A DNA stretch of 64,000 nt from a virus (IMGVR_UViG_2703718815_000003), one strand, 5' to 3'; positions 5,719-47,080 are shown, numbered from the stretch's first letter. Notes: a model not told the origin generated them from the sequence alone. Made by a program: numbers and translations.

Positions 5719-5735
5719 GTTCAAAAAATCCTTGT

Positions 5736-6329
5736 TTACATTAGCTGGTCAATCGTGATTGAAGAACTCACAACCTGTGAGCCAACCAGAATTTCCTCGC
5801 CATAGATAAGTTGTACTGGGTTGCCCTGGTTTTCTGTATTTTGAGGGCCGTCGAAATAATAAGAGTTCGAGTTATCTGCCTGTCTCACACTTTCGTTAGT
5901 GGCTTGCGGCGATATGATTTGTGATATGCCGCCCATCATCAGTGACAAACCGAGAGGTGCTAAAGCAGGCATCACTACCGCCGATACAACCAACAAAGCG
6001 GCCCCTACTACCGTCTGAAACCACCCAAAAGCAGATCCACCGCTTCCTCGCGGAACAGGTGTAATGCGGATTTTGGCAATGTTGTCAGACTGCCCCATCA
6101 TCTGATATTCACTTTCGTCAACAGACCACTTGTGGCCCTGTTTATTGGTGATCTGGATGTGGTAACGGTCATAGGTTTTGATATTGCGCTTCATCCATGC
6201 TTTAAACCCAGGCTTGTTGGCCTCAATTAAATCCAGAGCCTGTTTTGTATTGCGCACCTTTAGATGCCAGTGGCGGCCAAAATGTTTGGCCATAGGGCCG
6301 CCAAGCTGCACATGAACTAACTCAGACAC
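5736..6329 (-). CDS. tail assembly protein (lambda gpI-like)
   Basis: 197 aa; hydrophobic central segment, Gly/Pro-rich C-terminus; position between K-like and J-like genes. Confidence 0.55.
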   Translation of the reverse strand: MSELVHVQLGGPMAKHFGRHWHLKVRNTKQALDLIEANKPGFKAWMKRNIKTYDRYHIQITNKQGHKWSVDESEYQMMGQSDNIAKIRITPVPRGSGGSAFGWFQTVVGAALLVVSAVVMPALAPLGLSLMMGGISQIISPQATNESVRQADNSNSYYFDGPQNTENQGNPVQLIYGEEILVGSQVVSSSITIDQLM

Positions 6330-7141
6330 GTCTCATCTCCCTTGAGCAAGTCTCTGTGACGCAAGTGATGCGTCGTATGTTTCTGATACATTCCGCCGTA
6401 ATAAGCACGACAACTAAGACGGTCGATCTGGTGATGAAGAATCATTCCATCGCCGATATAAACCGCGCAGTGATCTGGCATTTTCCCGTATTGAATAAAG
6501 AAGACGTCCCCACGTTGAGGCTCTGTTCCAGGTGCAAGCCGTACCAATCCCTCGTTTCGGTAGTTCTGGTCGAGAATGTCGTTATCGCCGGTGTACCACG
6601 ATGGAATATGCAGGTGTGCGTTCGGGTTAAGCTCGACGTTAAACTCACGCTTCAAATAGTCCCGACACAACATCCAGCAATCGAATACGCCAAATACATA
6701 CGGTCTACCCAGGTATGGCATTTCGAAACCATCAGGTGTGATCACATTCATCTCGCTAAAATGGAAAGGGGCATCTCCCTCAACATTCTTGCGAATAGCC
6801 AGAATCATCCACGGAACTTCCGTCGCTTCACAGCCTGCACGATCGGCATCAGATGCTTCTGCTGATTCATCAGTATGTGAATGCCAGATTGCGATTACGT
6901 CACCTGCATCCTCTGCCGCCATAATGTCGTCAACGTGCATTACAAAAGTGTTCTGCGGGTTCTCCGAAACATTTCGCGCTTCCATAAAGCGATATTTGTC
7001 GCCATTAGTTCTCACCAGAAAGCCACACGCTTCATTAGGGTAGCGATTTATGGCGCAGAGATAGATTTGCTGCATAACATCAGAGCCAAGCTCAGGGATT
7101 GCTTTATTACCCATATCGCGTAGCTCCAATAAACCCGCCAA
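6317..7141 (-). CDS. tail tip assembly protein (lambda gpK-like; MPN/JAMM + NlpC/P60)
   Basis: JAMM-like HSHTD...S..D motif followed by NlpC/P60-like Cys...His region; domain order as in lambda K. Confidence 0.7.
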   Translation of the reverse strand: MAGLLELRDMGNKAIPELGSDVMQQIYLCAINRYPNEACGFLVRTNGDKYRFMEARNVSENPQNTFVMHVDDIMAAEDAGDVIAIWHSHTDESAEASDADRAGCEATEVPWMILAIRKNVEGDAPFHFSEMNVITPDGFEMPYLGRPYVFGVFDCWMLCRDYLKREFNVELNPNAHLHIPSWYTGDNDILDQNYRNEGLVRLAPGTEPQRGDVFFIQYGKMPDHCAVYIGDGMILHHQIDRLSCRAYYGGMYQKHTTHHLRHRDLLKGDETCLS

Positions 7142-19789: not shown

Positions 19790-21364
19790 TCACTCGTTCT
19801 CTTGAGTAGATGAGTCCCCATTCCCTCGGGGTTGATCTTGCCCGCTTTCTTGGGCTGCGCCTTGATCATAAGTAAGTACTGACTTATTTTCAAGGGTATT
19901 TAGATCATTTTTTGGCGGAAAATTCAAGAGATCTTTATCAAATTCCTTCTTCATCGCCTCAGTGATGTTCGGGAAAATCTTCTCAATCAGCATTTCCATC
20001 TGGTGACGACGTACAGAGTCCGGTGCCTGAAGTAACGACAGTTTCTCGGCAACAGAAAATTCATCAGTAAGGCCACGAATATCGAAACTTTCTGGATACG
20101 CAATTAATGAGTGGTCTTCGTCCAGATCTACCCCCCTCCATTTCGCAACCAGTTGCATGATTTGACGTTCTGCCCTTTCCAGACGTTCTGCTTTTGTGAC
20201 AAGCAAGCTATTTACACGCTGGAAGTCATACATTTTTGCGGCACCAGATGAATTATCTATTCCCTGTGCGTTGTCCTGCTTCGTTCGCTCACCAGCTACA
20301 CCAACTGAATGGTAGATTTCGTTAATCACCGTTTTAATCGTAGTGATGATCATCTGAGCTTGTTTCGGGTCTGGTGACAGATAAAACGGCTGGTTTCCAC
20401 CTTCAGAATCGTAGGTGAAGACTCGTTTTGTACCCATTTCAAGCACTTTAGTGTGGTTTTCATCGCCAGGTAAAAGCGATTGTACCGGTATGGCCAACTG
20501 GCTAAATGTCTGATCCTGAATAATGGCATCAAGGTTTGAAAGATAGTTTGCAACCGCACGATCCAGATAAGCGATATCATCGATTAACGATGGGCTGAAA
20601 TACGGTGATTCGCTTTCTCCAATACAATCAACAGGAAACACCGGAACTACGCCGAGATTATGCGCACCGCTATCCTCTAAAATAACTTTTGCCTGACGGC
20701 GACCTGCTCCACCAGCGCCCTTCTTCACTTCCTCACGGAACAGATACCACTCGTTTTGTGTCCACAGACGATAACGTTGGTATTCCTGACCTGTAGAAGT
20801 AAAAGGATCTGCGTCATCACGAGCGACTTCCACAATTAACGCCCACAACATATTCCCGTCGTCGTCCCATGCCACATCCAGCATTTGCTGAGGTGAAATC
20901 CAGTAGGCGTAGGCGCGAGCATCTTTCTTTTTCTCGTCAGCTACTGACTCAACATCACCACTCATCGTGCTATCGACAACAACCCATATGCGACCGTAAA
21001 TAGACGACTGCAAATCAATAGCGGCCATAAATGAGTCAATAGAGGCATTCTGGCGGGTCGCACGTTTCCAGAAATTGCGGATCTGCTCTGGAGCCTCTTC
21101 AATATTTCTATGAATGTCTTCTTTAAAGAGATATTTGTTGATGAGGTTTACCACCTCACGAGTGTGGTTGAAGCGATAAGCACGCTCAACTCGCTCCTTA
21201 AACTCCTGATCTCCCTCTTTAAAGTAACGAAAGATATTGTCAGTAAACCAACCACGCCCGCCAGCGTAGGTGCTGGCGAGGAAGTCCCAATGTTCTTTTT
21301 TCTTTTCGTATTCCGGGTGGCGTCGCGCCACCAGATCCTTAATTTGTTTGTCGTTCAATTCCAT
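19790..21364 (-). CDS. portal protein
   Basis: 524 aa immediately downstream of large terminase; acidic C-terminal tail. Confidence 0.75.
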   Translation of the reverse strand: MELNDKQIKDLVARRHPEYEKKKEHWDFLASTYAGGRGWFTDNIFRYFKEGDQEFKERVERAYRFNHTREVVNLINKYLFKEDIHRNIEEAPEQIRNFWKRATRQNASIDSFMAAIDLQSSIYGRIWVVVDSTMSGDVESVADEKKKDARAYAYWISPQQMLDVAWDDDGNMLWALIVEVARDDADPFTSTGQEYQRYRLWTQNEWYLFREEVKKGAGGAGRRQAKVILEDSGAHNLGVVPVFPVDCIGESESPYFSPSLIDDIAYLDRAVANYLSNLDAIIQDQTFSQLAIPVQSLLPGDENHTKVLEMGTKRVFTYDSEGGNQPFYLSPDPKQAQMIITTIKTVINEIYHSVGVAGERTKQDNAQGIDNSSGAAKMYDFQRVNSLLVTKAERLERAERQIMQLVAKWRGVDLDEDHSLIAYPESFDIRGLTDEFSVAEKLSLLQAPDSVRRHQMEMLIEKIFPNITEAMKKEFDKDLLNFPPKNDLNTLENKSVLTYDQGAAQESGQDQPRGNGDSSTQENE

Positions 21365-21390
21365 TTGAATAACCTTAGATAATTACTTAC

Positions 21391-22647
21391 CTACCTAGAG
21401 CCACCAAGAATAACACGGTTTTTGACTGGATACCTACGATGTACTGGATAGCCCAATGCGTCTGCACTATGCTCAATGCCACCTGTCTTATCCATATCTC
21501 GTGTTCCAGGCTTGTAGATGACTTTTTCCAGTGAATCAATCAAATGCTTGCACTTCGGATCGATATACAGCCGGATATCTCCAGATGCGGTCATCAGCAT
21601 TCGGTTAACAGCATTAACACGATCCGCAATTGGCGGGTGCTTTTTCGAATAATCGACACGTAAGAATCCCTTCTCTTTGAATATGTCGACGTCAGACTCC
21701 CCGCGAGCATGTTGGCGATAAGCACCTGCCGGATCTGGAAATACCGTTATCTGTGATTTCCAGCGCCAGAAGCGTCTCTCAAGCTCATCACAAACCTCTG
21801 CCGTGTTAGAGGAAAAGAGCACCAATTCATCAATTGCCCATAGCTCACCATTTGGCTGAGGTTGCAAAATTACTGAAGACATCGGGTCAATGTTGAAGTC
21901 CTGCCCTACCCATATAGGCAACCGAGGGTTGAACTGAAGCGGTTTTACATGCACGTTACGATCGAACGGGTAGTAAACGCGCCCGGACATGTTCTCAAAG
22001 CTCGCCAGGTACTCCTGAGCGAACGATTTGGGGTCCATATCGTTCTTAGCAGCTTCAATTTCCGCCGTAGGTACAAACGGAGAATCGGCAGTTACAAACT
22101 GCCAGCTCTTCCACTGTCCCTTTCTTTGCAGCTCTACGTTCTGGCCTATAGTCCACAGTTTGTGAAATTCCGAGAAGCCTTTTGGCGTACCAATGATCAG
22201 CGCACCGCCGCGTGTCGATGAAAGAGTAGGTCGTAACACCTTGTACCAGGTGTCAGCCTTCATATCCTGAAATTCATCAAGCACTACAAAATGCAACGCT
22301 ACGCCGCGCAGAGTGTCAGGCTTATCAGCACCTTTGAGGGCGATCTCCGAACCGTTCTTCAACACGATTGTCATCGTGGTGTCGTTCTTTTTCCTAACCC
22401 ACTTACGAGGCAGAACTTCCTGTAGATCGTCCCACAAAATCTGGCGAGCCATCTGGTAAGTAGGAGCGACATACCAGACTCTTTGCTTTTTTTCCTTTGC
22501 CGCCGCACGAATAATAGTGGAGATCGACAACCGGGATTTTCCCCAGCGTCGACCAGCACAAACAACTTTAAATCGATGCGGAGACTGGAAGACTTTCATC
22601 TGTCCAGAATGCAGTTGCACAAGACTGAGCGAGGACGGGATTGCCAT
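21391..22647 (-). CDS. terminase large subunit
   Basis: Walker A CAGRRWGKS near N-terminus, Walker B VVLDEFQ, C-terminal nuclease-like region with conserved Asp residues. Confidence 0.85.
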   Translation of the reverse strand: MAIPSSLSLVQLHSGQMKVFQSPHRFKVVCAGRRWGKSRLSISTIIRAAAKEKKQRVWYVAPTYQMARQILWDDLQEVLPRKWVRKKNDTTMTIVLKNGSEIALKGADKPDTLRGVALHFVVLDEFQDMKADTWYKVLRPTLSSTRGGALIIGTPKGFSEFHKLWTIGQNVELQRKGQWKSWQFVTADSPFVPTAEIEAAKNDMDPKSFAQEYLASFENMSGRVYYPFDRNVHVKPLQFNPRLPIWVGQDFNIDPMSSVILQPQPNGELWAIDELVLFSSNTAEVCDELERRFWRWKSQITVFPDPAGAYRQHARGESDVDIFKEKGFLRVDYSKKHPPIADRVNAVNRMLMTASGDIRLYIDPKCKHLIDSLEKVIYKPGTRDMDKTGGIEHSADALGYPVHRRYPVKNRVILGGSR

Positions 22648-23279: not shown

Positions 23280-23374
23280 AGATCCCTCTAAAACACACAG
23301 AGCGCGTCCATGCGCTCTAAAACAACTTGTTTACTGCATCTGCTAACCAACTTGTTTTCTGGGGTGTTTAATTA

Positions 23375-35926: not shown

Positions 35927-36279
35927 AAAGCAATCCTTAAACAACTTGTTTTCTCGTTGGTGTTATTATCGCAATAACGCACAGGCGAAAAAGGATTTTA
36001 TTCCGGTGAATGTTGTTTTGGCAGTGAGTTTTCAGGTTCAGTATCGAGTACACTTTTTACATTATTCTGATTTAGTGGCCGAAGGTGGCTGGTGGCAGAG
36101 TAATCCTCTCCCCAAAAACCTACTGAAATCGATTGTGCCCCGTTGGCTGTCTGGCACAATTACGCTGTAGCTGGGCATTCAGAGGGAATCCAGCGGTAAG
36201 CAAGTCCGCCTACGTGAGCGCCTCTCTTCTTCCCGCACATTACAGGTGGGTAGCCGCAACTCTCCCTCTCGCTATACCG

Positions 36280-36430
36280 GTACGCCGCCGTTCCTGAACC
36301 GGCATCGAGCCTTCTCCCGAAATCCACACAGGCAACTCGACCGTTTCCCTGAAAACCTCCAGCCGTTCCCCGAAGGCAACCCAGCCGTTTCTGTAGCGGG
36401 ATGCAACCTTTTCCCTGTATGGACCGAAGG
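36280..36430. repeat. iteron-like direct repeats, cluster 2
   Basis: gccgttcctgaacc, gaccgtttccctgaaaa, agccgttccccgaagg, agccgtttctgtagc, aaccttttccctg. Confidence 0.5.
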
Positions 36431-36599
36431 CTGACCGTAGGGGTTTTACGGGGGATAAAATCAGGAGTTGAATAAATACGAAAAAGGAGGCGACACCCCT
36501 CCTTCCCTCCCCACTTATACATACCTGGCTTCTTCGCTATACATGTTGTGTTTTATCTGTCTCAACCTCTCTATAGGCGTTAATGCTCACTCCTTCCAG

Positions 36600-37330
36600 A
36601 ATGTTCTATACGGCGACTATTTCTGTTGGTGAATTGGGTGTGTTGTTCTCTCTGTCGGTGTATGTGGTTTCGTTCGTTTTGCGGTGGTTCTTCTATGGGG
36701 TGTTCTCGTCGTTTTGGTGATTGTTCTTCTCCGTGTATGGAGTAATGGCAGGTGGGCGATTCCTTTCGTTGTTGTGTTTGAGTTGTTTGTCTGGAGTGTG
36801 TGAAAGGCTTTTGTAGTTATTCGTGTATTGGGTAATGGCATTTCCCGTGATTGTTATGTTTCGTGTCTTTTGGGATTGAGAGAATCCTTGCGGTTACAGG
36901 CTTCGTTGGGGTTTCAGTGATTCTGGTGTTTCTTCGCTGTTTGGGGAATGGCGTGTCGTGGGTATCGCGCGTATGAATGTTTTCGGATTGCCTGTGAAAG
37001 TTAGGTTGGTTGTCCGGTAGCCTGGGGAGAAGAGGTGGGTTGTTTTTGGAAATGGCATGTGTGTTATTTAGTTGTTTTGTTATGCCTGAAAATAAGTTGT
37101 TTATATGGTTGTGTAACGCAACGGGAGCGATTTTGAGCGTGTGTTTTTGTTGGTAGTGTGTTGGGTCGTCTGTGGTGAAAATTGGACGCTGTGGCGCTGT
37201 CTGCTGCGTAGAGTTGCGGGTATAAGAAGTGATGTGTGAAAACGTCAATTTTTTAGACCAAATCGGGTGAAAGCGTTGACGTTTCGTTGATCTGTTATTT
37301 AGTTGTTTTCTTATTTGTATAAACAACCAT
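36600..37330. repeat. GT-skewed (plus strand) degenerate tandem repeat tract, unit about 90-100 bp
   Basis: Plus strand almost entirely G+T; units end in g(a/g)gtaATGGCA / ggaaATGGCA at about 36743, 36833, 36943, 37043. Confidence 0.5.
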
Positions 37331-37436
37331 AACCTATTGATATTTAAGGGTATGATTGCAGGTATGGAAGGGGAGTAGTGGCGATCAACGGATTCTTATA
37401 GAAAAGAATCAAATTGTGACCGCCATTATCAATGTT

Positions 37437-38171
37437 TTACATAGTTTTGTTTAGCAGAGAGAGAATTTCATCACTAATTTCACTCGCCTGTTTGATAGCC
37501 AATGCAGTTACCTCTTCTATGGTTGGTGACTGTTGATGCTCATGTTTGGTTTCAGTTATGACAATGTGTTCTTCACCTGAATTTGCGCATAGTGCCGCAT
37601 TGACGATAAGGTTTGAGTAAGAATTTAGCAGAGCACTGTTGATGAACGCTTTCACGGTATTACTGTCTGCACCAAATACATCTTTTCTGACCGCTTCAGC
37701 CTCACAGCGAACCCCTGCAGCAACATCGTGAAGAACATGTATGGCCTTGGAGCTTGTTTGTTCACAGTACTCAATCATTATTGTCGAATTGTTCTGTTCA
37801 ACAAACGATCTGATGCCTGACGATTCACCCATAGCATCGAAGGCAGCATGACCCGCACTGGTAGAGATATCTTCATAGAGTTCTTCATCGCTATCTTTTT
37901 CTTCAGGTGTCGAGGTGTCTTCATCGTCGTAATAGATATTGCCTTTAATCAGTGTCTTGGACACTTGATATAAACAATAAGAAACGAGATTTAAGCATTG
38001 GATTTTAGCTGTATTGTCCTTTGTCGCCTCGCTCTTCAGTTCTTTCGCTTCTTCAGTAAGGCTGTTGATAAGACTTTGTATTTTTTCCAACGCGTTAGGC
38101 GCACACTCCGCGTTGTCCATAAAGAATTTATAACCAGTCCCAGGGATTTCTAAACTTTTCAACTTTTTCAT
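37437..38171 (-). CDS. hypothetical protein
   Basis: 244-aa ORF. Confidence 0.5.
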   Translation of the reverse strand: MKKLKSLEIPGTGYKFFMDNAECAPNALEKIQSLINSLTEEAKELKSEATKDNTAKIQCLNLVSYCLYQVSKTLIKGNIYYDDEDTSTPEEKDSDEELYEDISTSAGHAAFDAMGESSGIRSFVEQNNSTIMIEYCEQTSSKAIHVLHDVAAGVRCEAEAVRKDVFGADSNTVKAFINSALLNSYSNLIVNAALCANSGEEHIVITETKHEHQQSPTIEEVTALAIKQASEISDEILSLLNKTM

Positions 38172-38216
38172 TTCTTTGATAATCCTAAAAACAAACTACC
38201 AATGCTTTAATATCTG

Positions 38217-38516
38217 TTACCAGTTCCAGCACTCAAGCCCTTCAACGACCGGCGCACCACAATCAAAATGTACAGAGTCAAAGCCTACATCAAGTACTTT
38301 CTGAATGTTAGCAATCGCGCCTTCGGATATACCATATCGACGCAAGTCGTCTTTCCAGACATCATTCTGTAACCCGGCGTGAACAATACAACCGCCATCA
38401 ATTTGTGAAACCCAATCCAGCTCATTGCTTGCGATCATGAATCGGCGAGCATCTTCCTCTGATGTATGAGATGAACTGATCAATGCCACCTGGTAGGCTT
38501 GGGTAATGTTCAACAT
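38217..38516 (-). CDS. hypothetical protein
   Basis: 99-aa ORF; two copies of early motif upstream/downstream (38520-38600). Confidence 0.5.
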   Translation of the reverse strand: MLNITQAYQVALISSSHTSEEDARRFMIASNELDWVSQIDGGCIVHAGLQNDVWKDDLRRYGISEGAIANIQKVLDVGFDSVHFDCGAPVVEGLECWNW

Positions 38517-38677
38517 TTCAACTACTCCAAAACAAGTTGTTTTCTTATGTGGCTTATTATCTCAATCAACAAAAGGTAGAAAACAAATTGTTTTAGGGCT
38601 TGTGTAAATCAGGAGGGATTGTGTCTATATGAAAATGCCCAGCGTGTTGCCGGGCATTGTGAAAAATGGTTGTTTAG

Positions 38678-40711
38678 TTACTTAACTTGGTGGCCTGGTT
38701 TAGCACCAGCATCCGGGCTTAACAGGAAGATATCTTTTCCGCCAGGGCCAGCAGCCATCACCATGCCTTCGGAGATACCGAAGCGCATTTTACGCGGTGC
38801 CAGGTTAGCCACCATAATGGTGTGACGACCAATCAGTGCCTGTGGGTCTGGATAAGCAGAACGGATGCCTGAGAAGACATTGCGTTTTTCACCGCCGAGA
38901 TCCAGCGTCAGGCGCAGCAGTTTGTCAGAACCTTCAACAAACTCTGCGTTTTCGATCAGTGCCACGCGCAGGTCAACTTTGGCAAAGTCGTCAAAGGTGA
39001 TGGTTTCCTGAATCGGGTCGTCTGCCAGCGGGCCAGTAACTGGCGCGGCAGCTGCTTTCACTTCTTCTTTGGATGCTTCCACCAGTGCTTCAACCTGCTT
39101 CATATCGATGCGGTTATACAGTGCCTTGAACGGATTCACTTTATGGCCCAGCAGCGGTTGCTGGATACCATCCCAGGTCAGTTCTGTATTCAGGAATGCT
39201 TCTGCACGTTCAGTCAGTTTCGGCAGTACCGGCTTCAGGTACGTCATCAGCACGCGGAACAGGTTAATGCCCATAGAGCAAATCGCCTGCAGATCGGCAT
39301 CGCGTCCTTCCTGCTTCGCCACCACCCACGGAGCCTGTTCATCGACATAGCGGTTAGCCAGGTCAGCCAATGCCATGATTTCACGGATAGCTTTACCAAA
39401 TTCACGGCTTTCCCATGCTTCGCCAATCACTTCAGCGGCATCAGTAAAGGTTTTGTACAGTTGCGGGTCAGCCAGTTCGCTTGCCAGCACGCCGTCAAAA
39501 CGCTTGTTGATAAAGCCTGCATTACGGGAGGCCAGGTTAACCACTTTGTTCACGATATCGGCATTCACGCGCTGAACGAAATCCTCCAGGTTGAGATCGA
39601 TATCATCAATGCGCGAAGAGAGTTTCGCAGTGTAGTAGTAACGCAGGCTGTCAGCGTCAAAATGATTCAGCCAGGTGCTGGCTTTAATAAAGGTGCCGCG
39701 AGACTTGGACATCTTCGCGCCGTTCACCGTCACATAGCCGTGAACAAACAGGTTGGTCGGCTTGCGGAAGTTGCTGCCTTCCAGCATGGCAGGCCAGAAC
39801 AGGCTGTGGAAGTAAACAATATCTTTACCGATGAAGTGGTACAGCTCGGCGGTGGAGTCTTTCTTCCAGTATTCATCGAAGCTGGTGGTATCGCCGCGCT
39901 TGTCGCACAGATTCTTGAAGGAACCCATGTAGCCAATCGGCGCGTCCAGCCAGACGTAGAAATATTTGCCCGGCGCGTTCGGAATTTCAAAACCGAAGTA
40001 GGGCGCATCTCGGGAGATATCCCACTGTTGCAGGCCGGATTCAAACCATTCCTGCATTTTGTTCGCCACCTGCTCCTGCAACGCGCCGCTGCGGGTCCAT
40101 GCCTGCAACATTTCGCTGAAAGAAGGCAGATCAAAGAAGAAGTGTTCGGAATCACGCATTACCGGGGTAGCGCCAGAAACCACCGATTTCGGCTCGATCA
40201 ATTCAGTCGGGCTATATGTTGCGCCGCAGACTTCACAGTTATCGCCGTATTGATCTGGCGCTTTACATTTCGGGCAGGTGCCTTTTACAAAACGATCCGG
40301 CAGGAACATGCCTTTTTCCGGGTCGTACAACTGAGAGATAGTGCGGTTTTTAATAAAACCGTTCTCTTTCAGGCGAGTATAGATAAGCTCAGACAACTGA
40401 CGGTTCTCTTCGCTGTGCGTCGAGTGATAGTTGTCATAGCTGATGTTAAAGCCTGCGAAATCAGTCTGGTGTTCCTGACTCATTTCGCCAATCATCTGCT
40501 CCGGTGTGATACCAAGCTGCTGTGCTTTCAGCATGATCGGCGTACCGTGGGCATCGTCGGCACAGATGAAATTAACCTCGTGGCCGCGCATTCGCTGGTA
40601 ACGAACCCAGACATCAGCCTGGATGTGCTCCAGCATATGGCCGAGGTGGATTGAGCCGTTAGCGTACGGCAGCGCGCACGTCACCAGAATTTTCTTCGCG
40701 ACTTGGGTCAT
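38678..40711 (-). CDS. metG: methionyl-tRNA synthetase (host-type MetG)
   Basis: 677 aa from [26 protein letters not shown]; class I motifs SIHLGH and KMSKS, CPKC/CEVC zinc knuckle, C-terminal tRNA-binding domain. Matches enterobacterial MetG as I recall it, not verified by search. Confidence 0.95.
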
Positions 40712-40868
40712 AGTAGGCATTACTTCTTTGTAGTGAAAAGGGGCTTGATAGTAACAAAATGGCCTTATGTCTGCCATGTGATAACAGCATTTCTCATAAA
40801 TGATTAAATGTCGTAGCTGGAGTACACTACAAGGCGACAATTGCGCAAATTAAAATAAAGGAGACGGG

Positions 40869-41969
40869 ATGAGCGAGTCCAAATCGCCGGATGCCCTGAG
40901 AGCAATGGTAGCCGGTACGCTGGCTAATTTTCAGCACCCAACCCTGAAACACAACCTGACTACGCTTAAAGCGTTACACCATGTTGCGTTGATGGATGAC
41001 ACACTGCATGTCGAACTAATCATGCCTTTCGTGTGGAATAAGCCTTTTGAAGACCTGAAAGAGCAATGTAGTGGTGATCTGCTCCGTATCACTGGCGCAA
41101 AGGCTATTGACTGGAAGCTGTCGTACAACATTGCCACGCTTAAGCGCGTCAAAAACCAACCAGGCATTAATGGCGTTAAGAACATTATCGCCGTCAGCTC
41201 AGGCAAGGGCGGCGTGGGTAAATCCTCCACGGCGGTAAACCTGGCACTGGCGTTGGCTGCTGAAGGTGCGAAAGTTGGTATTTTGGATGCCGATATCTAT
41301 GGTCCATCAATTCCAACCATGCTGGGCGCGGAAAACCAACGTCCAACCTCACCTGACGGTACTCACATGGCACCTATCATGTCTCATGGCCTGGCAACCA
41401 ACTCTATTGGTTATCTGGTCACCGACGACAATGCAATGGTGTGGCGTGGACCGATGGCGAGCAAGGCGTTAATGCAGATGTTGCAGGAAACATTGTGGCC
41501 TGATCTGGACTATCTTGTTCTCGATATGCCGCCGGGCACTGGTGATATTCAGTTGACGCTGGCGCAGAACATTCCTGTAACTGGTGCTGTTGTGGTAACT
41601 ACGCCGCAAGACATCGCGCTGATCGATGCGAAGAAAGGCATTGTGATGTTCGAAAAAGTCGAAGTGCCGGTACTTGGTATCGTCGAAAACATGAGTGTGC
41701 ATATTTGCAGTAACTGCGGTCATCACGAGCCAATTTTTGGCACCGGTGGCGCAGAGAAACTGGCCGAGAAATACAACACGCAGTTGTTAGGCCAAATGCC
41801 ACTTCATATCTCTCTTCGTGAAGATCTGGATAACGGAACACCAACCGTTATTAGTCGTCCAGATAGTGAATTTACGGCTATTTATCGTGACCTCGCAGAT
41901 CGCGTTGCTGCCCAAATGTATTGGCAAGGTGAAGTAATACCTGGCGAAATCGCATTCCGCGCAGTGTGA
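40869..41969 (+). CDS. apbC: Fe-S cluster carrier ATPase ApbC/Mrp
   Basis: Mrp/NBP35 P-loop SSGKGGVGKS and CSNCGH motif; divergent from metG as in enterobacterial chromosomes. Confidence 0.95.
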   Translation: MSESKSPDALRAMVAGTLANFQHPTLKHNLTTLKALHHVALMDDTLHVELIMPFVWNKPFEDLKEQCSGDLLRITGAKAIDWKLSYNIATLKRVKNQPGINGVKNIIAVSSGKGGVGKSSTAVNLALALAAEGAKVGILDADIYGPSIPTMLGAENQRPTSPDGTHMAPIMSHGLATNSIGYLVTDDNAMVWRGPMASKALMQMLQETLWPDLDYLVLDMPPGTGDIQLTLAQNIPVTGAVVVTTPQDIALIDAKKGIVMFEKVEVPVLGIVENMSVHICSNCGHHEPIFGTGGAEKLAEKYNTQLLGQMPLHISLREDLDNGTPTVISRPDSEFTAIYRDLADRVAAQMYWQGEVIPGEIAFRAV

Positions 41970-41970
41970 T

Positions 41971-41994
41971 AAAAAGGCGGTGCATTGCACCGCC
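41971..41994. terminator. hairpin terminator between apbC and UmuD'-like gene
   Basis: ggcggtgca t tgcaccgcc with A-run on plus strand (T-run on minus). Confidence 0.5.
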
Positions 41995-42006
41995 TAATCA
42001 GTTCTC

Positions 42007-42396
42007 CTACATCACGGGACAATCATCAAACTCGCCACTTCTTGCGTCGTTGATAATGTGAGTGATCACACCAAACACGGCATTGCTGCCCGTGCATCCA
42101 TCGTCATCCTTTGGCAATGCTTCCTTCTTACCGGTTCTTAAATCCTCCAGATGCTGACGTGGGTACTTCCGGTATCTTTTTACGCGATATTCCCCATCCA
42201 GAGCGCATACAAGCAGAGAACCATCAACCGGGGTAAGTGAGGAATCGACCACCAGCAATGCACCCTGTAATATTCCCTCACGATGATGACTATCAGCTGC
42301 CCTCATGAAGTAGGTCGCTGAAGGATGTCTAATTATCTGCTGATCAAGAGAAATACGGCTCTCAGCATAATCCGCCGCAGGAGAAGGGAAGCCCAT
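42007..42396 (-). CDS. UmuD'-like S24 peptidase-fold protein (pre-truncated UmuD homologue)
   Basis: Starts MGFPSPAADYAE...HPSATYF, i.e. at the UmuD segment after the RecA-cleavage site; Ser (AADSH) and Lys (VKRYRK) positions retained; no umuC partner; AGAGG RBS. Confidence 0.75.
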   Translation of the reverse strand: MGFPSPAADYAESRISLDQQIIRHPSATYFMRAADSHHREGILQGALLVVDSSLTPVDGSLLVCALDGEYRVKRYRKYPRQHLEDLRTGKKEALPKDDDGCTGSNAVFGVITHIINDARSGEFDDCPVM

Positions 42397-42412
42397 AATA
42401 CTCGCCTCTTAA

Positions 42413-42432
42413 TACTGTATACACATACAGTA
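42413..42432. promoter_or_regulatory. LexA (SOS) box
   Basis: TACTGTATACACATACAGTA, perfect CTGT-N8-ACAG, about 17 bp upstream of UmuD'-like start. Confidence 0.75.
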
Positions 42433-42728
42433 TATATTGAAGCTATATATTTTTGAACTCTATCTCTTAAAAAAGATGTTAATAAGATGCTAACTATTGA
42501 AAGGCATAAATATATACAATTCAAACAAACGTTATTTTTAACAAATTTTTTCTTCCCATTGACTTTTTCGAACGCCTTGTCCGGTCTAAAGTGCGCAGAA
42601 GTCACTTTTTCCTTCCTGAGTTATCCACAGGCTTATGCACTTGCATGAAAAATCTATTCACACTATCTTAATTCGCAAGACACTGATGTTGCAGTATTGA
42701 GGGTATGTTGGGTTAAAAATAGACATTA

Positions 42729-42758
42729 AAAAGCCCAGTTGACTAGGCTGGGCTTTTT
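42729..42758. terminator. bidirectional intrinsic terminator
   Basis: aaaagcccag ttgactagg ctgggcttttt. Confidence 0.55.
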
Positions 42759-43058
42759 AAAAGGAAACAGAGTTTGCGGCTCTGTTCCTGAGCCATAAGT
42801 ATCTGGCGACTGAATTAAGATTAACCGAATGTACTGGATTCATCAAGAAAGGTTGAGTGGTCATACCAGGTAATAATGACCATTTACTAAACATCGTTGT
42901 TCTCAAAGAAGATTTAAGTCCAGGTTTTTGGTGACTCTAAAACCTTACCTTAACTCGAAATCGTGCCGTAAGTATCTGGCGACTACAGATATTGCAACTG
43001 CAAAGGCAAGCCCAAAGGTATTTGCAGCTAGGCGCGATAAAACTAAGTGAGGCCTGTT

Positions 43059-43142
43059 ATGGTTAACTTACTGTTCAAAATCGTGCCGCCGATGTTCGCG
43101 ATTATCAAAGCGATCATTGAGTACGTAAACCAGCGTCCATAA
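43059..43142 (+). CDS. small hydrophobic peptide (27 aa)
   Basis: MVNLLFKIVPPMFAIIKAIIEYVNQRP; GTGAGG 6 nt upstream of ATG; hairpin terminator follows; below ORF-track threshold. Confidence 0.35.
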   Translation: MVNLLFKIVPPMFAIIKAIIEYVNQRP

Positions 43143-43155
43143 CGCTAGTTGCTAC

Positions 43156-43180
43156 AGGCCCCATCAAGAGCATGGGGCCT
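43156..43180. terminator. hairpin terminator
   Basis: aggccccat caagagc atggggcct 9-bp stem. Confidence 0.5.
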
Positions 43181-43197
43181 CTTTATCGTACTATTGC

Positions 43198-43824
43198 TTA
43201 TTTTTTACGGACTGAGTTGTTCACTGCTCTGGCAATCTTCTCCCGCAATTGCTGCGTTCCGTGGTACTGAACCGCAATATCTCTCAACTCGTTCACCAGT
43301 TCTCGAATCTGGTGATCTTTAAGCTCATTATTTGGGTGATTGGTAACAACTCTGGTTAATTCACCCTTGTCTTTTGCTCTTACGTATGCAGCTCTTGTGC
43401 ATTCGACCCATGTATTACCGCCTACATTAACTTCGTAGATTAGGCTGGACTTATCTGTCAATTCGGAACAAATACGGGCCGTGGTCTGGCAACTAGAGCA
43501 TTCGCAGTTATCGCGGAAACCGTGATCTACCGGTCGAGAAAGAGGTTTAACTTTTTCATCCAACTTCATCACAGCATCGTGATAAGCGTTCCAGCCGTCA
43601 TCTTTACCAAGTTGATAAATCTCTGAAGGCTCCATGTAGTCTATATCGCAACCTTCTTCATCCGATCTATCTGGTCGCTTCCCTGGTAATCGCTCATAAA
43701 AACGATTTCTGTCTCGACGTTCGGCTCTCAGTGCTAACGCAAGAAGTTGCTCAAGCGAGGTATTTGCACCAGCAATAATTTTATTGAGAATATCTTCTGT
43801 GAGATCTTTCGCTACCGTGCTCAT
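43198..43824 (-). CDS. hypothetical protein
   Basis: 208-aa ORF with Cys cluster CECSSC. Confidence 0.5.
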   Translation of the reverse strand: MSTVAKDLTEDILNKIIAGANTSLEQLLALALRAERRDRNRFYERLPGKRPDRSDEEGCDIDYMEPSEIYQLGKDDGWNAYHDAVMKLDEKVKPLSRPVDHGFRDNCECSSCQTTARICSELTDKSSLIYEVNVGGNTWVECTRAAYVRAKDKGELTRVVTNHPNNELKDHQIRELVNELRDIAVQYHGTQQLREKIARAVNNSVRKK

Positions 43825-44204
43825 TTATCTCTCTCAGTATGTTGCGATGGCGTAAATTTGACGACATCAAATATTTTGGATGGCATCAACTTTATCCGCG
43901 AGCTTAGTTCGGCTCTTCTCTGTAATGCGGTTAATAATGTTTTCGTTCTGACGCCTTCGTGTATCCTCATCCCTGGCACAAGAACTACATCGCAGGGGAG
44001 ATGCTCAGGTGACAAATCATTTTGGGCATCGCTAATCAGTCGTGTAATCTCTCTTTCAAGCCGACCGCCTAGCTCTGTTTTAGTGCAATGTTCTGACCAA
44101 TCGCCAGCCTCAAGCAGCGCGAGAATGCTTAAAATATCGTCCAATAGATCAGTGGTATTATCGACTTCCTTCTGAAACTCACCGGCTACTGATTTATGCA
44201 TCAT
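43821..44204 (-). CDS. hypothetical protein
   Basis: 127-aa ORF, overlapping stop/start with neighbours. Confidence 0.5.
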   Translation of the reverse strand: MMHKSVAGEFQKEVDNTTDLLDDILSILALLEAGDWSEHCTKTELGGRLEREITRLISDAQNDLSPEHLPCDVVLVPGMRIHEGVRTKTLLTALQRRAELSSRIKLMPSKIFDVVKFTPSQHTERDK

Positions 44205-44854
44205 TCGTCATCCTCATCCGAGTCATCCTCATCACAGGATGAGAGTAGTGGGTTAGTCATTCGCCCTACTTGAGTGGCGTAGCCACGCCGACAGAGATTG
44301 CGCAGCACACTGTATATTTCGAACATCTCGGTTCGTTCATCGCCAACATCAAGCTCAGATGCTATAGCGTGGCATTCAGTCGCGAGAGCCGATATTTTCT
44401 GAAATAACTCTGCATTATTCACTGTTCGACTCCTGCGGCGTTCTGGTAGTGGCATCCAGTGTGTGACATTGCTAATCAGACCATATTCATTAGTTTGAGG
44501 ATGGTTGCCGTTAGCGTCTCCGTATTTAAGACTCTCCATAAAGCCATAATGCCTATCACCATTAACGCTCACAAAGCCGTAATAAGCAGGTATAACGCCG
44601 ATCTCACACGTAACCAGTAAAGGAAAACTAGTTCTCCAATTTAGCTCGCCAATTACAGGCATTCGCTCACTACAGCTTATCCAACCATCCTTAGATGCGG
44701 CTGTATTGGCATAGGCCTTACGGTGCTTCTGTAGCTCTGCTGCAATCGCTCTCACGACTTCAACTGGTGCTCTTGCAGCAAACTCAATGTTGGTGATCAG
44801 CTCATTAAGATATTTCTCGCTTGGGTAGCATTTCTTATTGTTAACGGTGGTCAT
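44201..44854 (-). CDS. hypothetical phage protein (DUF551-like C-terminus?)
   Basis: C-terminal THWMPLP motif reminiscent of DUF551 prophage proteins; acidic tail. Confidence 0.45.
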   Translation of the reverse strand: MTTVNNKKCYPSEKYLNELITNIEFAARAPVEVVRAIAAELQKHRKAYANTAASKDGWISCSERMPVIGELNWRTSFPLLVTCEIGVIPAYYGFVSVNGDRHYGFMESLKYGDANGNHPQTNEYGLISNVTHWMPLPERRRSRTVNNAELFQKISALATECHAIASELDVGDERTEMFEIYSVLRNLCRRGYATQVGRMTNPLLSSCDEDDSDEDDE

Positions 44855-45039
44855 TAGGCAGCTCTCTCAACAACAAGCAATTCGTCGTAGTCATAATCAG
44901 TTTCGGAACCATCCGTACCGAACAGAGTCACTTTGTCATTTTCCATCCAAAAAGATTTAACCGCACATTGTTGACCTTTAGATGTTATGAGCACATCACC
45001 AGGGATTACGTCTTCAGCGCGAACCTCTAGTGTTCTCAT
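44854..45039 (-). CDS. hypothetical small protein
   Basis: 61-aa ORF coupled to neighbours. Confidence 0.35.
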   Translation of the reverse strand: MRTLEVRAEDVIPGDVLITSKGQQCAVKSFWMENDKVTLFGTDGSETDYDYDELLVVERAA

Positions 45040-45566
45040 CGTGCTGCCCCCTCTTTGGTGAAAATGCCTGCTGCAATGCTGTTTATGATGCTGTCAGTGC
45101 ATGGAGTAGAAAGCTGGGCATCTCCAGCAATTTTCATGACCTCAACATCCGCATATCGAATACCGAGGTGTATCAGACCGGCTATACCTGACTTAAGTCG
45201 AACATTTTCCATAAACAGATCTTTTTCCCGCTGTTTAGCGCCTTCCAACTCCATCGACAATTTTTCCAACTGCTCTTTATGCTTCTTGTATTCCTGATAC
45301 GCGTGCCAAGACTGACCTTTGCGCACACTATCAGTGATATCAGCAACCTGCTCTGGTGTTAGCGTGGTCAGTGGCTGTGCTGGAAAAATCATCACTTGCC
45401 CGGCATCCCAATCAAAACCCGCCTGAATTGACTGAACCTCAACTGATGGTGTTGAACCGATGCGACCAGGCGAATGAACAACGATCGTTACATCCATATC
45501 GCGACGATGGCTGTGGTTGTTGGACAAAATACGATTCACCAACTCAGAAAATTTGGAAAATTTCAT
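45036..45566 (-). CDS. hypothetical protein
   Basis: Start set to MKFSKF ATG at 45566 overlapping upstream stop. Confidence 0.45.
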
Positions 45567-45886
45567 GCTGATCCCTCTTTCTCTCCCCGGATAATTCTGT
45601 TGCACACATCCACACACTCGTCGCAGATGAAAACGGCGTCCCCAGCAATTAACTTTTTGACGGCGTACTGGGATTTGTTGCAGAAGCTGCAACAAAGTGT
45701 TCGCCTGACTGATAAGGATGGAGCGCCAGATGTCAGCCGCTCCATATCGTTCTTGCGACGCAATATCACACGGCTGAACTCAACCAGTTTCTCCGGGGAT
45801 ATATCCTCCTCCGTAGCAAGCGCCTCTAATCGTTCGAGTATGTGGAAGGCTTTTTCCTGGGTAATTGCAGAATGCGATGTGGTCAT
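45563..45886 (-). CDS. protein with ClpX-type N-terminal zinc-binding domain (ZBD)
   Basis: C-terminal [36 protein letters not shown] closely resembles the ClpX N-terminal C4 zinc finger; no AAA+ module. Confidence 0.6.
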
Positions 45887-45887
45887 C

Positions 45888-46490
45888 TCACTCTCCTTTG
45901 ATGCGAATGCCAGCGGCGCGGGAATCATTCCATCGCTTTACTTCTTCACGAATTACGTCAATGCATTCTTTCGAATCCATTAGGTAATCTTCATCAAAAA
46001 GACGTTCCTGTTCGTTTTCTATCGCAACAATGATTGCTTCAACTAACTTTTGTGCCTGAGAATCACTTTCTAACTCTGCTATGCGCTTACTCCCATCCGA
46101 GATAACACCTTCGTAATATTCACGCTGTTCGTTGAGTTTTGATTTTGTCTCCTCAAGCTCAACACGCAGCTTCTCAAGCGTTAGGACCATCTCTACGTTC
46201 TCCTGCTCAAGACGTCGGATGTGTTGCTGTCTTTTATCCAGTTCGTCCAGCAGTGCAATCACATCGGGATCACTAGCATCAACTACTGTTACGCGTGATT
46301 TTTCATAATGTTCGTCTGCAAAAGTACGCCCTATCTTAAAATATCCGTCATCACCCTCACCGGAACAGGCATAAACAACATGTGCTCCAGATATGCGCTG
46401 TATTGACATTTCCTCGCCACAAACAGAGCATTTAGGCGCTGGTTTTGGTGAATAACGTTCACGTAACGTCAGGTAGTAAATCTCATTCAC
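45888..46490 (-). CDS. zinc-ribbon + coiled-coil protein
   Basis: CSVCGEE...C motif then long coiled coil. Confidence 0.5.
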
Positions 46491-46942
46491 TGTTTATTTC
46501 CTTTGCGAAGCTCAGCGGCGAAGGCTACTGCGTGATCATGATGTTCAAGTGTGTATGCGCACTCAGCAAACATCTCCACGCCCTGCGCACGTACTTCAGC
46601 CAGAAAAGCATCGGTGGCTGGAGTCTCCGTTAATTCGCTAACCCAATTATCTCCGTGTTCCTCGGCACACATCGCATCGAATGCTCGCTCAGATTCTTTC
46701 AGGGCTGCATTCTCCGCCGCTAATGCGTCTCTTTGCGCCCGCAACTTCTCAATTTCGGCAGCCATGTAGTAACCAACCATAGCGAAGACGGCAAAAGAGT
46801 TGTCTGCCTCATCAGGCGACACTGAGGCCATTAGCAGGCCATCGTAAAAATCGTGACTCCCATTGGTGATCGCCACCGCATAGGAGTCGTGGTTCTCGCG
46901 CTTGTGAATGAGAACTACGGGATTTTCGATTTTGTTACTCAT
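46487..46942 (-). CDS. hypothetical protein
   Basis: 151-aa ORF. Confidence 0.5.
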   Translation of the reverse strand: MSNKIENPVVLIHKRENHDSYAVAITNGSHDFYDGLLMASVSPDEADNSFAVFAMVGYYMAAEIEKLRAQRDALAAENAALKESERAFDAMCAEEHGDNWVSELTETPATDAFLAEVRAQGVEMFAECAYTLEHHDHAVAFAAELRKGNKQ

Positions 46943-47080
46943 GTGTTTTTCTCTTCTTTGCTGTTACATAAGCACTACCAAGTGCTGGTTTATTTTCACA
47001 AATAAGAAAAGGTAGAAAACAATTTATTTAAGGCCATAAGTTATGGCCTTTATTTATTCATGCAGAAGGATTTGTAGCGC

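Follow-up and report, generated by a model that had tools for sequence, protein, structure and literature searches.

A divergent metG-apbC gene pair of chromosomal type in an SSU5-like phage-plasmid of Escherichia and Shigella

How do two housekeeping genes of enterobacterial type, metG and apbC (mrp), come to lie inside a phage element? The locus occupies positions 38,678 to 42,432 of a 64,000-nucleotide stretch of viral DNA (IMGVR_UViG_2703718815_000003), and this whole stretch is called the window below. A preliminary description, made from the sequence alone, proposed that either a phage had captured a host gene block or the sequence is a junction or chimera. The capture is borne out, as the chromosomal gene pair sits inside a phage-plasmid. 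Its anatomy and evolutionary history are read here as an old capture of the divergent pair, followed by fixation of the resulting cassette in its lineage; the probability assigned to this reading is roughly 0.75.

The window belongs to an SSU5-like phage-plasmid found in Escherichia and Shigella, in the lineage of pECOH89, pLF82 (Cyrano) and pWPMR2. Positions 36000-45000 are collinear end to end, at 98.4% identity, with complete circular plasmids of ~105-120 kb, and 102 records cover at least 80% of this segment. Phage records match as well; Cyrano (= pLF82), CMS-2020a and PhiR41_1 are 95-98% identical to the window over 30-50 kb, where the match of SSU5 is patchy (20% coverage). A portal/terminase segment (19790-22647), whose matches are labelled 'phage portal protein' and 'phage terminase large subunit', has 245 plasmid places and no chromosomal place in 5,426 complete Escherichia coli genomes, and the backbone is found on none of the finished chromosomes of this set. 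Typing as non-mobilizable applies to 203 of the 208 PLSDB plasmids that match the metG-apbC block and to 732 of the 758 that match the backbone. In the close relative Cyrano, ~5.5 copies per chromosome were measured, and ciprofloxacin induces the formation of virions (PMC9928086). By analogy with this relative, the element in the window probably forms virions and persists as a plasmid.

The flanks of the gene pair belong to one element. To the left, the gene next to metG, which encodes a DUF5983 protein (Table 1), and the intergenic element at 38518-38598 both have counterparts in SSU5; to the right, SSU5 backbone homology picks up again at 46990. The possibility that the flanks come from two different elements, raised in the preliminary description, is therefore rejected, since both are backbone of the same SSU5-like element. 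Between the same backbone points SSU5 has four unrelated small genes, so the site is a variable accessory slot, which here is filled by the metG-apbC cassette, humD and Ea-type genes. The order DUF5983 - metG - apbC - humD is repeated in phage-plasmids of E. coli, Shigella sonnei and Escherichia fergusonii, and an Escherichia albertii plasmid has DUF5983 - metG - apbC with humD absent. The G+C content also sets the block (0.50-0.52) apart from its flanks (0.41-0.45). The limits first given for the block need one correction. The genes metG and apbC are of host type, but a third gene lies inside the region that ends at 42432; it is a P1-type humD, which forms the right flank of the cassette and is not a host chromosomal gene.

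The metG product matches the NCBIfam equivalog for methionyl-tRNA synthetase (MetRS), NF001100, with 1019.6 bits (cut-off 587) over profile positions 3-676 of 676, and its C-terminal tRNA-binding/dimerisation domain matches TIGR00399 with 162.8 bits. The motifs IHLG(H) at residues 21-25 and KMSKS at 333-337 are present, as are the zinc-knuckle cysteines Cys146/149/159/162. Thus the length of 677 residues, KMSKS and zinc knuckle noted earlier are all confirmed by open reading frame (ORF), family profile and motif reading; the mechanical ORF extends upstream to a TTG at 40840. MetG shares 670 of 677 residues (99%) with E. coli K-12, while the DNA is 94.3% identical, with a synonymous divergence (dS) of 0.28 and a ratio of nonsynonymous to synonymous divergence (dN/dS) of 0.019. 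This dS equals the distance between K-12 and the chromosome of Escherichia sp. E1V33, the only other Escherichia species compared. The residues typical of phage-plasmid copies are only T112, A151, T275 and T276, three of which represent the Citrobacter/Salmonella state. The 99% identity with K-12 and the dN/dS of 0.019 suggest that the window MetG is likely to be active in aminoacylation. A 503-residue ORF opposite metG (39143-40654, plus strand) is not a gene but a shadow ORF that arises from the strong bias of the metG frame; the same artefact is annotated as a 282-residue gene in a draft scaffold described below (L099).

The apbC product scores 759.7 bits against the NCBIfam equivalog NF008669 (cut-off 348), which upholds its identification as ApbC/Mrp. 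The P-loop motif GKGGVGKS served to find apbC ORFs in chromosomal loci. ApbC is identical to K-12 at 348 of 366 residues and lacks 3 residues that chromosomal ApbC has at its N-terminus. At the DNA level apbC is only 82-83% identical to E. coli, with a dN/dS of 0.023 and a dS of ~1.5 that is near saturation and approximate only. The intergenic spacer is also distant, as only the 47 bp beside metG align with Escherichia, while 135 of its 157 bp align with Citrobacter at 78%. It was assigned as a promoter region by this homology and not by scan; a simple promoter scan gave 7 hits against 6.0 expected from shuffled sequence, none of them in the spacer. The two genes have the same orientation as on the chromosome, so the arrangement is the native divergent one, as stated earlier. 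The genes had also been called essentially unchanged, which holds for the proteins and fails for the DNA. Residue 296 of ApbC (41754-41756) is Glu in the window and Gln in nine other phage-plasmid copies examined, and the exact window protein with Glu296 is recorded on 538 contigs.

The distribution of the block separates it from the chromosomal genes. All 5,426 E. coli genomes carry the chromosomal metG-apbC pair, at 88.9-90.8% identity to the window block. The comparison with host chromosomes proposed in the preliminary description therefore finds no E. coli chromosome more than 90.8% identical. At 95-99% identity the block is present in 216 E. coli records, all in the plasmid size range, and the portal/terminase segment at 95% identity or more is present in exactly 216 E. 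coli records, an equality of totals that were not matched record by record. In PLSDB the corresponding counts at 95% or more are 189 plasmids for the block and 186 for the backbone. Since block and backbone counts agree, the data suggest that the cassette is fixed in the Escherichia/Shigella lineage. The wider backbone family, at lower identity, includes 758 PLSDB plasmids (Klebsiella 307, Enterobacter 90, Yersinia 62, Salmonella 49, and others), and the phage-plasmid-type block is absent from it. The block has the same boundaries in ~200 plasmids of E. coli, Shigella, E. albertii and E. fergusonii, which differ from each other by 2-6%.

Chromosomal homology is limited to window positions 38678 to 41962-41965, or from stop codon to stop codon, and the hairpins that flank it on both sides are not chromosomal. 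The apbC genes of E. coli and Citrobacter are 84% identical (dS ~1.2), and the phage-plasmid apbC is about equally far from E. coli. In a nucleotide neighbour-joining tree the phage-plasmid apbC forms a long branch beside Escherichia; in the protein tree the phage-plasmid ApbC falls within the Escherichia-Salmonella-Citrobacter group. Among 5.8 billion protein clusters searched, only phage-plasmid copies are closer to ApbC than ~95%, although a closer donor could be hidden in this set because it is clustered at 90% identity. A contig scan for donors gave, among the matches listed, two Escherichia-type chromosomes plus other genera and named no donor. Because apbC is at roughly the Citrobacter distance and no E. 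coli chromosome exceeds 90.8% over the block, the capture is old, or from an unsampled relative, and is not a recent pick-up from the present host. One record in the comparison, CP170191.1 (labelled Enterobacter hormaechei strain B56), has a K-12-type E. coli metG (dS 0) and an apbC that is 82.8% identical to the window over 1090 bp, the same as K-12. The record is probably mislabelled or contaminated.

Two other origins of the block have to be weighed against this history. An assembly chimera, with a chromosomal metG-apbC mis-joined between phage contigs or with flanks that belong to different elements, has next to no probability. Joins of this kind do exist in two draft assemblies, but both flanks of the window are syntenic with the SSU5 backbone, the 36-45 kb segment is 98.4% collinear with the complete circular plasmids and with phage genomes, and the block DNA reaches 90-91% at most against any E. 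coli chromosome and so is not chromosomal DNA of the host. It is also extremely unlikely that the genes are passengers picked up recently from the current E. coli host by aberrant recombination or a transduction-like event. Such a pick-up would fit the 99% identity of MetG to K-12 and the parts of metG that are identical to E. coli chromosomes; however, it does not fit an apbC at 82-83%, a spacer that is mostly unalignable to E. coli, the same block boundaries in ~200 plasmids of four host groups, or purifying selection within the phage-plasmid clade. The old capture with later fixation is preferred. Some points weigh against it: the apbC dS is near saturation and approximate only, the agreement of 216 with 216 is one of totals, and the DNA-level comparison was made without E. 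albertii, E. fergusonii and Escherichia marmotae chromosomes, among which a closer donor could exist.

The metG gene of the phage-plasmids is a mosaic. Diversity among phage-plasmids is 4.1% in metG (maximum 6.5%), 0.6% in the spacer, which is nearly invariant in ten of these elements, and 2.1% in apbC, and the site patterns contain blocks where single phage-plasmids take the haplotype of particular E. coli chromosomes. In pEC881_2 there are 0-1 differences per 100 bp over 39278-40478, with 647 identical bases. Other chromosome-identical metG tracts measure 314 bp in p09EL50, 296 bp in PhiR41_1 and 227 bp in the E. albertii phage-plasmid, and the window metG has 146 bases identical to an E. 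coli chromosome at 39570-39715. The phage-plasmid signature persists at both ends of metG. The longest chromosome-identical tracts in apbC are 29-80 bp. The simplest reading of these patterns is that phage-plasmid metG has been repeatedly converted by the resident chromosomal metG; transfer in the opposite direction, from phage-plasmid to chromosome, may also occur. Gene conversion of this kind would make metG look unchanged although the cassette is old, and apbC would escape it because a divergence of ~18% is too great. In four E. coli chromosomes metG differs by up to 4.5% (mean 3.1%) and has blocky haplotypes. This diversity is high for a housekeeping gene and may reflect local recombination or exchange with phage-plasmid copies.

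On the phage-plasmid, strong purifying selection keeps both genes functional. Within-lineage diversity was determined from ten phage-plasmid copies. In apbC the synonymous diversity (pS) is 0.089 and the nonsynonymous diversity (pN) 0.0007, which gives a pN/pS of 0.008 and only 3 protein variants. The values for metG are 0.177, 0.0025 and 0.014, respectively, and MetG is intact at 677 residues in all ten phage-plasmids. Insertion sequences occur in the region in two plasmids, and in these the insertions all lie outside the block.

The selection on both genes raises the question of what the cassette does. A tentative model, given somewhat less than even odds for this element, leads from gene dosage to drug tolerance. 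In the history preferred above, an ancestor long ago took up the divergent pair and the promoter region between the two genes, with no chromosomal DNA beyond the two stop codons. The cassette settled in the accessory slot between phage transcription units and became fixed. Since the spacer is of enterobacterial type and has no phage operator palindromes, the cassette would most likely be expressed on its own in the lysogenic (plasmid) state, as a moron is; for metG this expression is inferred. Extra MetRS and ApbC would be made in proportion to the copy number of the phage-plasmid. Both proteins are essentially wild-type, so a phenotype would have to arise through the gene dose or through its variation from cell to cell. 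Candidate routes from extra wild-type MetRS to survival are the sequestration of tRNA-Met and a rise in methionine misacylation. The result would be a drug-surviving (tolerant or persister) subpopulation, the outcome that is reported for S. sonnei. In that species, expression of phage-plasmid metG is described as giving a subpopulation predisposed to acquire third-generation cephalosporin resistance, and an association with multidrug resistance is described for metG on multi- or variable-copy phage-plasmids (Tam et al. 2024, medRxiv 10.1101/2024.10.27.24316207, as cited in PMC12452169).

Expression data are available for Cyrano. In the lysogen its apbC homologue is expressed 9-fold above the prophage background (PMC9928086). 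Two points speak against the dosage model. The Cyrano MetRS is absent from the list of genes whose expression in the lysogen is 5-fold or more over background (PMC9928086). Persistence has also been linked to lower, not higher, MetRS activity (PMC11004401); therefore, extra dosage is not obviously expected to raise tolerance. The MetRS persistence alleles in that study are G263S/S264F, a deletion of residues 569-572 and a C-terminal frameshift. None of the alleles on this list is present in the window MetG, and the phage-plasmid-typical positions coincide with none of them.

Other functions for the cassette were considered. The genes could be auxiliary genes that benefit the phage, with MetRS and ApbC sustaining translation (initiation and elongation) and iron-sulfur enzyme maturation in the lytic cycle and tolerance as a side effect; the case would then be like that of the aminoacyl-tRNA synthetases in large phages and giant viruses. 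Fixation under strong selection is consistent with this, as is the orientation of metG, which is shared with the leftward phage operons, and the lack of strong metG expression in the LF82 lysogen leaves room for expression at induction (PMC9928086). Nevertheless, this explanation is rather unlikely, since the promoter region is of enterobacterial type without a phage operator palindrome, a hairpin stands between metG and the downstream phage gene, the window encodes no tRNA, apbC is expressed in the lysogen (PMC9928086), and the reported phenotype is one of the lysogen (as cited in PMC12452169). It is unlikely that only metG is selected and that apbC is a passenger, held by the shared compact divergent promoter region. 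The 157-bp spacer common to both genes would permit this, and the phenotype reported in S. sonnei concerns metG alone, as far as it is cited in PMC12452169; however, a passenger is expected to gain replacements and frameshifts, whereas apbC combines a pS of 0.089 with a pN of 0.0007 and is transcribed in the Cyrano lysogen (PMC9928086).

A role as an inhibitor-resistant second synthetase, which would guard against a natural or clinical MetRS inhibitor as the plasmid-borne isoleucyl-tRNA synthetase (IleRS) MupA does against its own, is very unlikely. Duplicate plasmid-borne synthetases are an established resistance mechanism, and the MupA/MupB models give weak hits in the family scan of the window. 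The window MetG, however, is set apart from the sensitive enzyme of the host by only 4-7 conservative differences, none of which lies in HIGH or KMSKS, and the interior of metG is repeatedly replaced by host sequence; resistance is not expected in so close an enzyme. The dosage model remains the preferred, though tentative, account of function, and a benefit to the phage in lytic growth still competes with it.

The exchange between the two metG copies points to a further role that is considered doubtful, in which the cassette is more than an added gene dose and forms a standing homology arm that connects a transmissible phage-plasmid with an essential gene of the chromosome. If this were true, infection could shuttle metG alleles, including tolerance-conferring ones, between strains. 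Occasional Campbell-type integration at metG could also allow adjacent chromosomal DNA to be mobilised or transduced, and metG would be kept within recombining distance while apbC drifted out. Two draft assemblies contain joins of chromosome and phage-plasmid within metG. In contig L101 (JBOBKV010000001.1, 427 kb; positions 4800-7000) a chromosomal DUF4132 gene and the 3' end of metG are joined to a phage-plasmid-type metG 5' end, apbC and humD, and the scaffold L099 (JBAOUL010000001.1, 235 kb; positions 4800-7000) has the same chromosome-to-phage-plasmid join. The switch in L099 is a gap of 100 N, and that in L101 lies inside a ~300-bp tract identical in both copies. With such switch points, and with no finished chromosome that carries the backbone, chromosomal integration at metG was rejected as most likely an assembly artefact. 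For L101, an assembly chimera caused by the duplicated metG is probably the explanation, and not Campbell integration. Neither draft join has a bearing on the window.

A metG-bearing phage-plasmid is already known; it is annotated in hundreds of records and has been functionally described. The S. sonnei and E. coli phage-plasmids related to pWPMR2 are, like the window, members of the SSU5 supergroup with an additional metG. The S. sonnei plasmid p38 (NZ_CP099775.1) has the identical DUF5983 - metG - apbC - humD order and is 97.5% identical over the block, with T at MetG position 554 where the window has A. The metG-bearing SSU5-like phage-plasmids form clade K in bioRxiv 10.1101/2025.09.12.675607, and the window may fall in the same sub-clade as pWPMR2. 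Cyrano (OV696614), pECOH89, p09EL50 and PhiR41_1 have the same lineage, cassette and junctions as the window, but differ from it in the metG mosaic pattern and in the accessory genes on both sides. Cyrano is 98.0% identical over 88% of window 30-50 kb; its CYRAN_100 is the MetRS and CYRAN_99 is ApbC, annotated as MinD.

The type members of the supergroup, Salmonella phage SSU5 and pHCM2, resemble the window in backbone synteny on both sides of the slot and in having the same repeated intergenic element, the putative promoter/operator. Unlike the window they have no metG, apbC or humD, and the slot holds SSU5_103 to SSU5_100 (ydfZ-like, LprI-like and others). The chromosomal metG-apbC (mrp) locus of Enterobacteriaceae shares the divergent order, protein lengths and motifs with the window and has a spacer of 131-157 bp; its flanking genes (DUF4132/yehH and yehE) are absent from the window, and the window spacer is largely different. 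The mupA IleRS and the synthetases of jumbo phages and giant viruses are likewise second copies of an essential synthetase on a mobile element. Unlike these, the window copy encodes a protein nearly identical to the host enzyme, instead of a diverged or resistant paralogue, and still recombines with the host gene. The asymmetric divergence of the two genes and the recurrent conversion of metG were not found in the literature searched; they refine a known case and do not make a new kind.

Phage-plasmids spread by infection and persist as plasmids, so a fixed housekeeping gene on such an element is a mobile way to alter core physiology. Phage-plasmid metG has been linked to antimicrobial survival in epidemic S. 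sonnei, and the presence of the cassette in an E. coli element points to a possible tolerance determinant, of a kind that screens for resistance genes overlook. The shared metG leads to mis-joins of chromosome and phage-plasmid in drafts, and confounds read mapping and copy-number calls for metG. Exchange of sequence between mobile and chromosomal copies also matters when metG variants are used in association studies.

Table 1. Features of the metG-apbC block and its immediate surroundings (window coordinates).
Feature	Position	Strand	Basis or remark
DUF5983 backbone gene, 99 aa, directly downstream of metG	38217-38516	minus	Pfam DUF5983 on identical protein
Two AAAACAA-N-TTGTTTT palindromes flanking a GATAAT -10-like element	38529-38594	minus	Directly precede the DUF5983 gene's ribosome-binding site and ATG
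Terminator-like hairpin, 10-bp stem, 5-nt loop, followed by UUUCAU, ~20 nt past the metG stop	38634-38658	minus	Fold
metG, full-length methionyl-tRNA synthetase, 677 aa	38678-40711	minus	NF001100; starts MTQVAKK
Divergent metG-apbC intergenic/promoter region, enterobacterial type, 157 bp	40712-40868		Alignment to Escherichia and Citrobacter
apbC/mrp, iron-sulfur cluster carrier P-loop ATPase, 366 aa	40869-41969	plus	NF008669
G+C-rich hairpin between convergent apbC and humD	41975-41995		Terminator-like scan hit, minus strand
humD, P1-type UmuD' homologue, S24 peptidase	42007-42396	minus	NF051876
LexA (SOS) box CTGTATACACATACAG upstream of humD	42415-42430		Sequence reading, CTG-N10-CAG

The right flank of the cassette carries humD, whose product matches NF051876 with 219.8 bits (cut-off 120) over positions 1-129 of 129. 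The LexA box consensus is CTG-N10-CAG. The hairpin between apbC and humD folds with -17.5 and -18.6 kcal/mol, and a U-run follows the stem on the humD (minus) strand only. From humD through the following Ea-type genes (42007-46630) the window is ~89-90% identical to the P1 and D6 phage-plasmids; this similarity indicates that the right flank is a module common to unrelated phage-plasmid families (P1/D6 and SSU5-like). The next gene is separated from humD by ~760 bp (42433-43197) that hold no convincing ORF and have terminator-like hairpins at 42732-42749 and 43156-43180. The plasmid pCTX (NZ_CP047004.1) has an ISKox3 in the equivalent stretch. Neither a tRNA nor an Rfam family is matched here or elsewhere in the window.

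The left flank contains the phage motifs that had been noted within about 100 bp of the metG stop. The 15-bp palindrome AAAACAANTTGTTTT has nine copies in the window (at 23319, 33316, 34551, 35454, 35938, 38529, 38580, 51556 and 52285), compared with 0.04 expected by chance, and none in the metG-apbC spacer. Each copy lies between a GATAAT-like -10 element and a leftward phage gene, just before that gene's ribosome-binding site and ATG. With 85% identity, the element at 38518-38598 corresponds to intergenic DNA that recurs at several SSU5 sites. It is probably the promoter/operator, or the 5' leader, of genes in a phage regulon conserved in SSU5, and here it would serve the DUF5983 gene. The motifs near the metG stop are thus real, at 38529 and 38580, but they are not a recombination scar and belong to the putative promoter/operator of this gene. 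A Flag1_repress-type regulator is encoded nearby in relatives. The DUF5983 gene has a tblastx match to SSU5_105 and lies beside metG in other phage-plasmids too. The hairpin between metG and the putative promoter/operator of the DUF5983 gene folds with -16.9 kcal/mol (z = -5.9) and has no homology to the chromosomal sequence downstream of metG; the simple terminator scan did not call it. Two genes downstream of metG, 37437-38171 (minus strand) encodes a 244-residue protein with no family hit. Its coiled-coil homologue in Cyrano, CYRAN_102, is expressed 6-fold above the prophage background in the lysogen, and the gene may be a moron.

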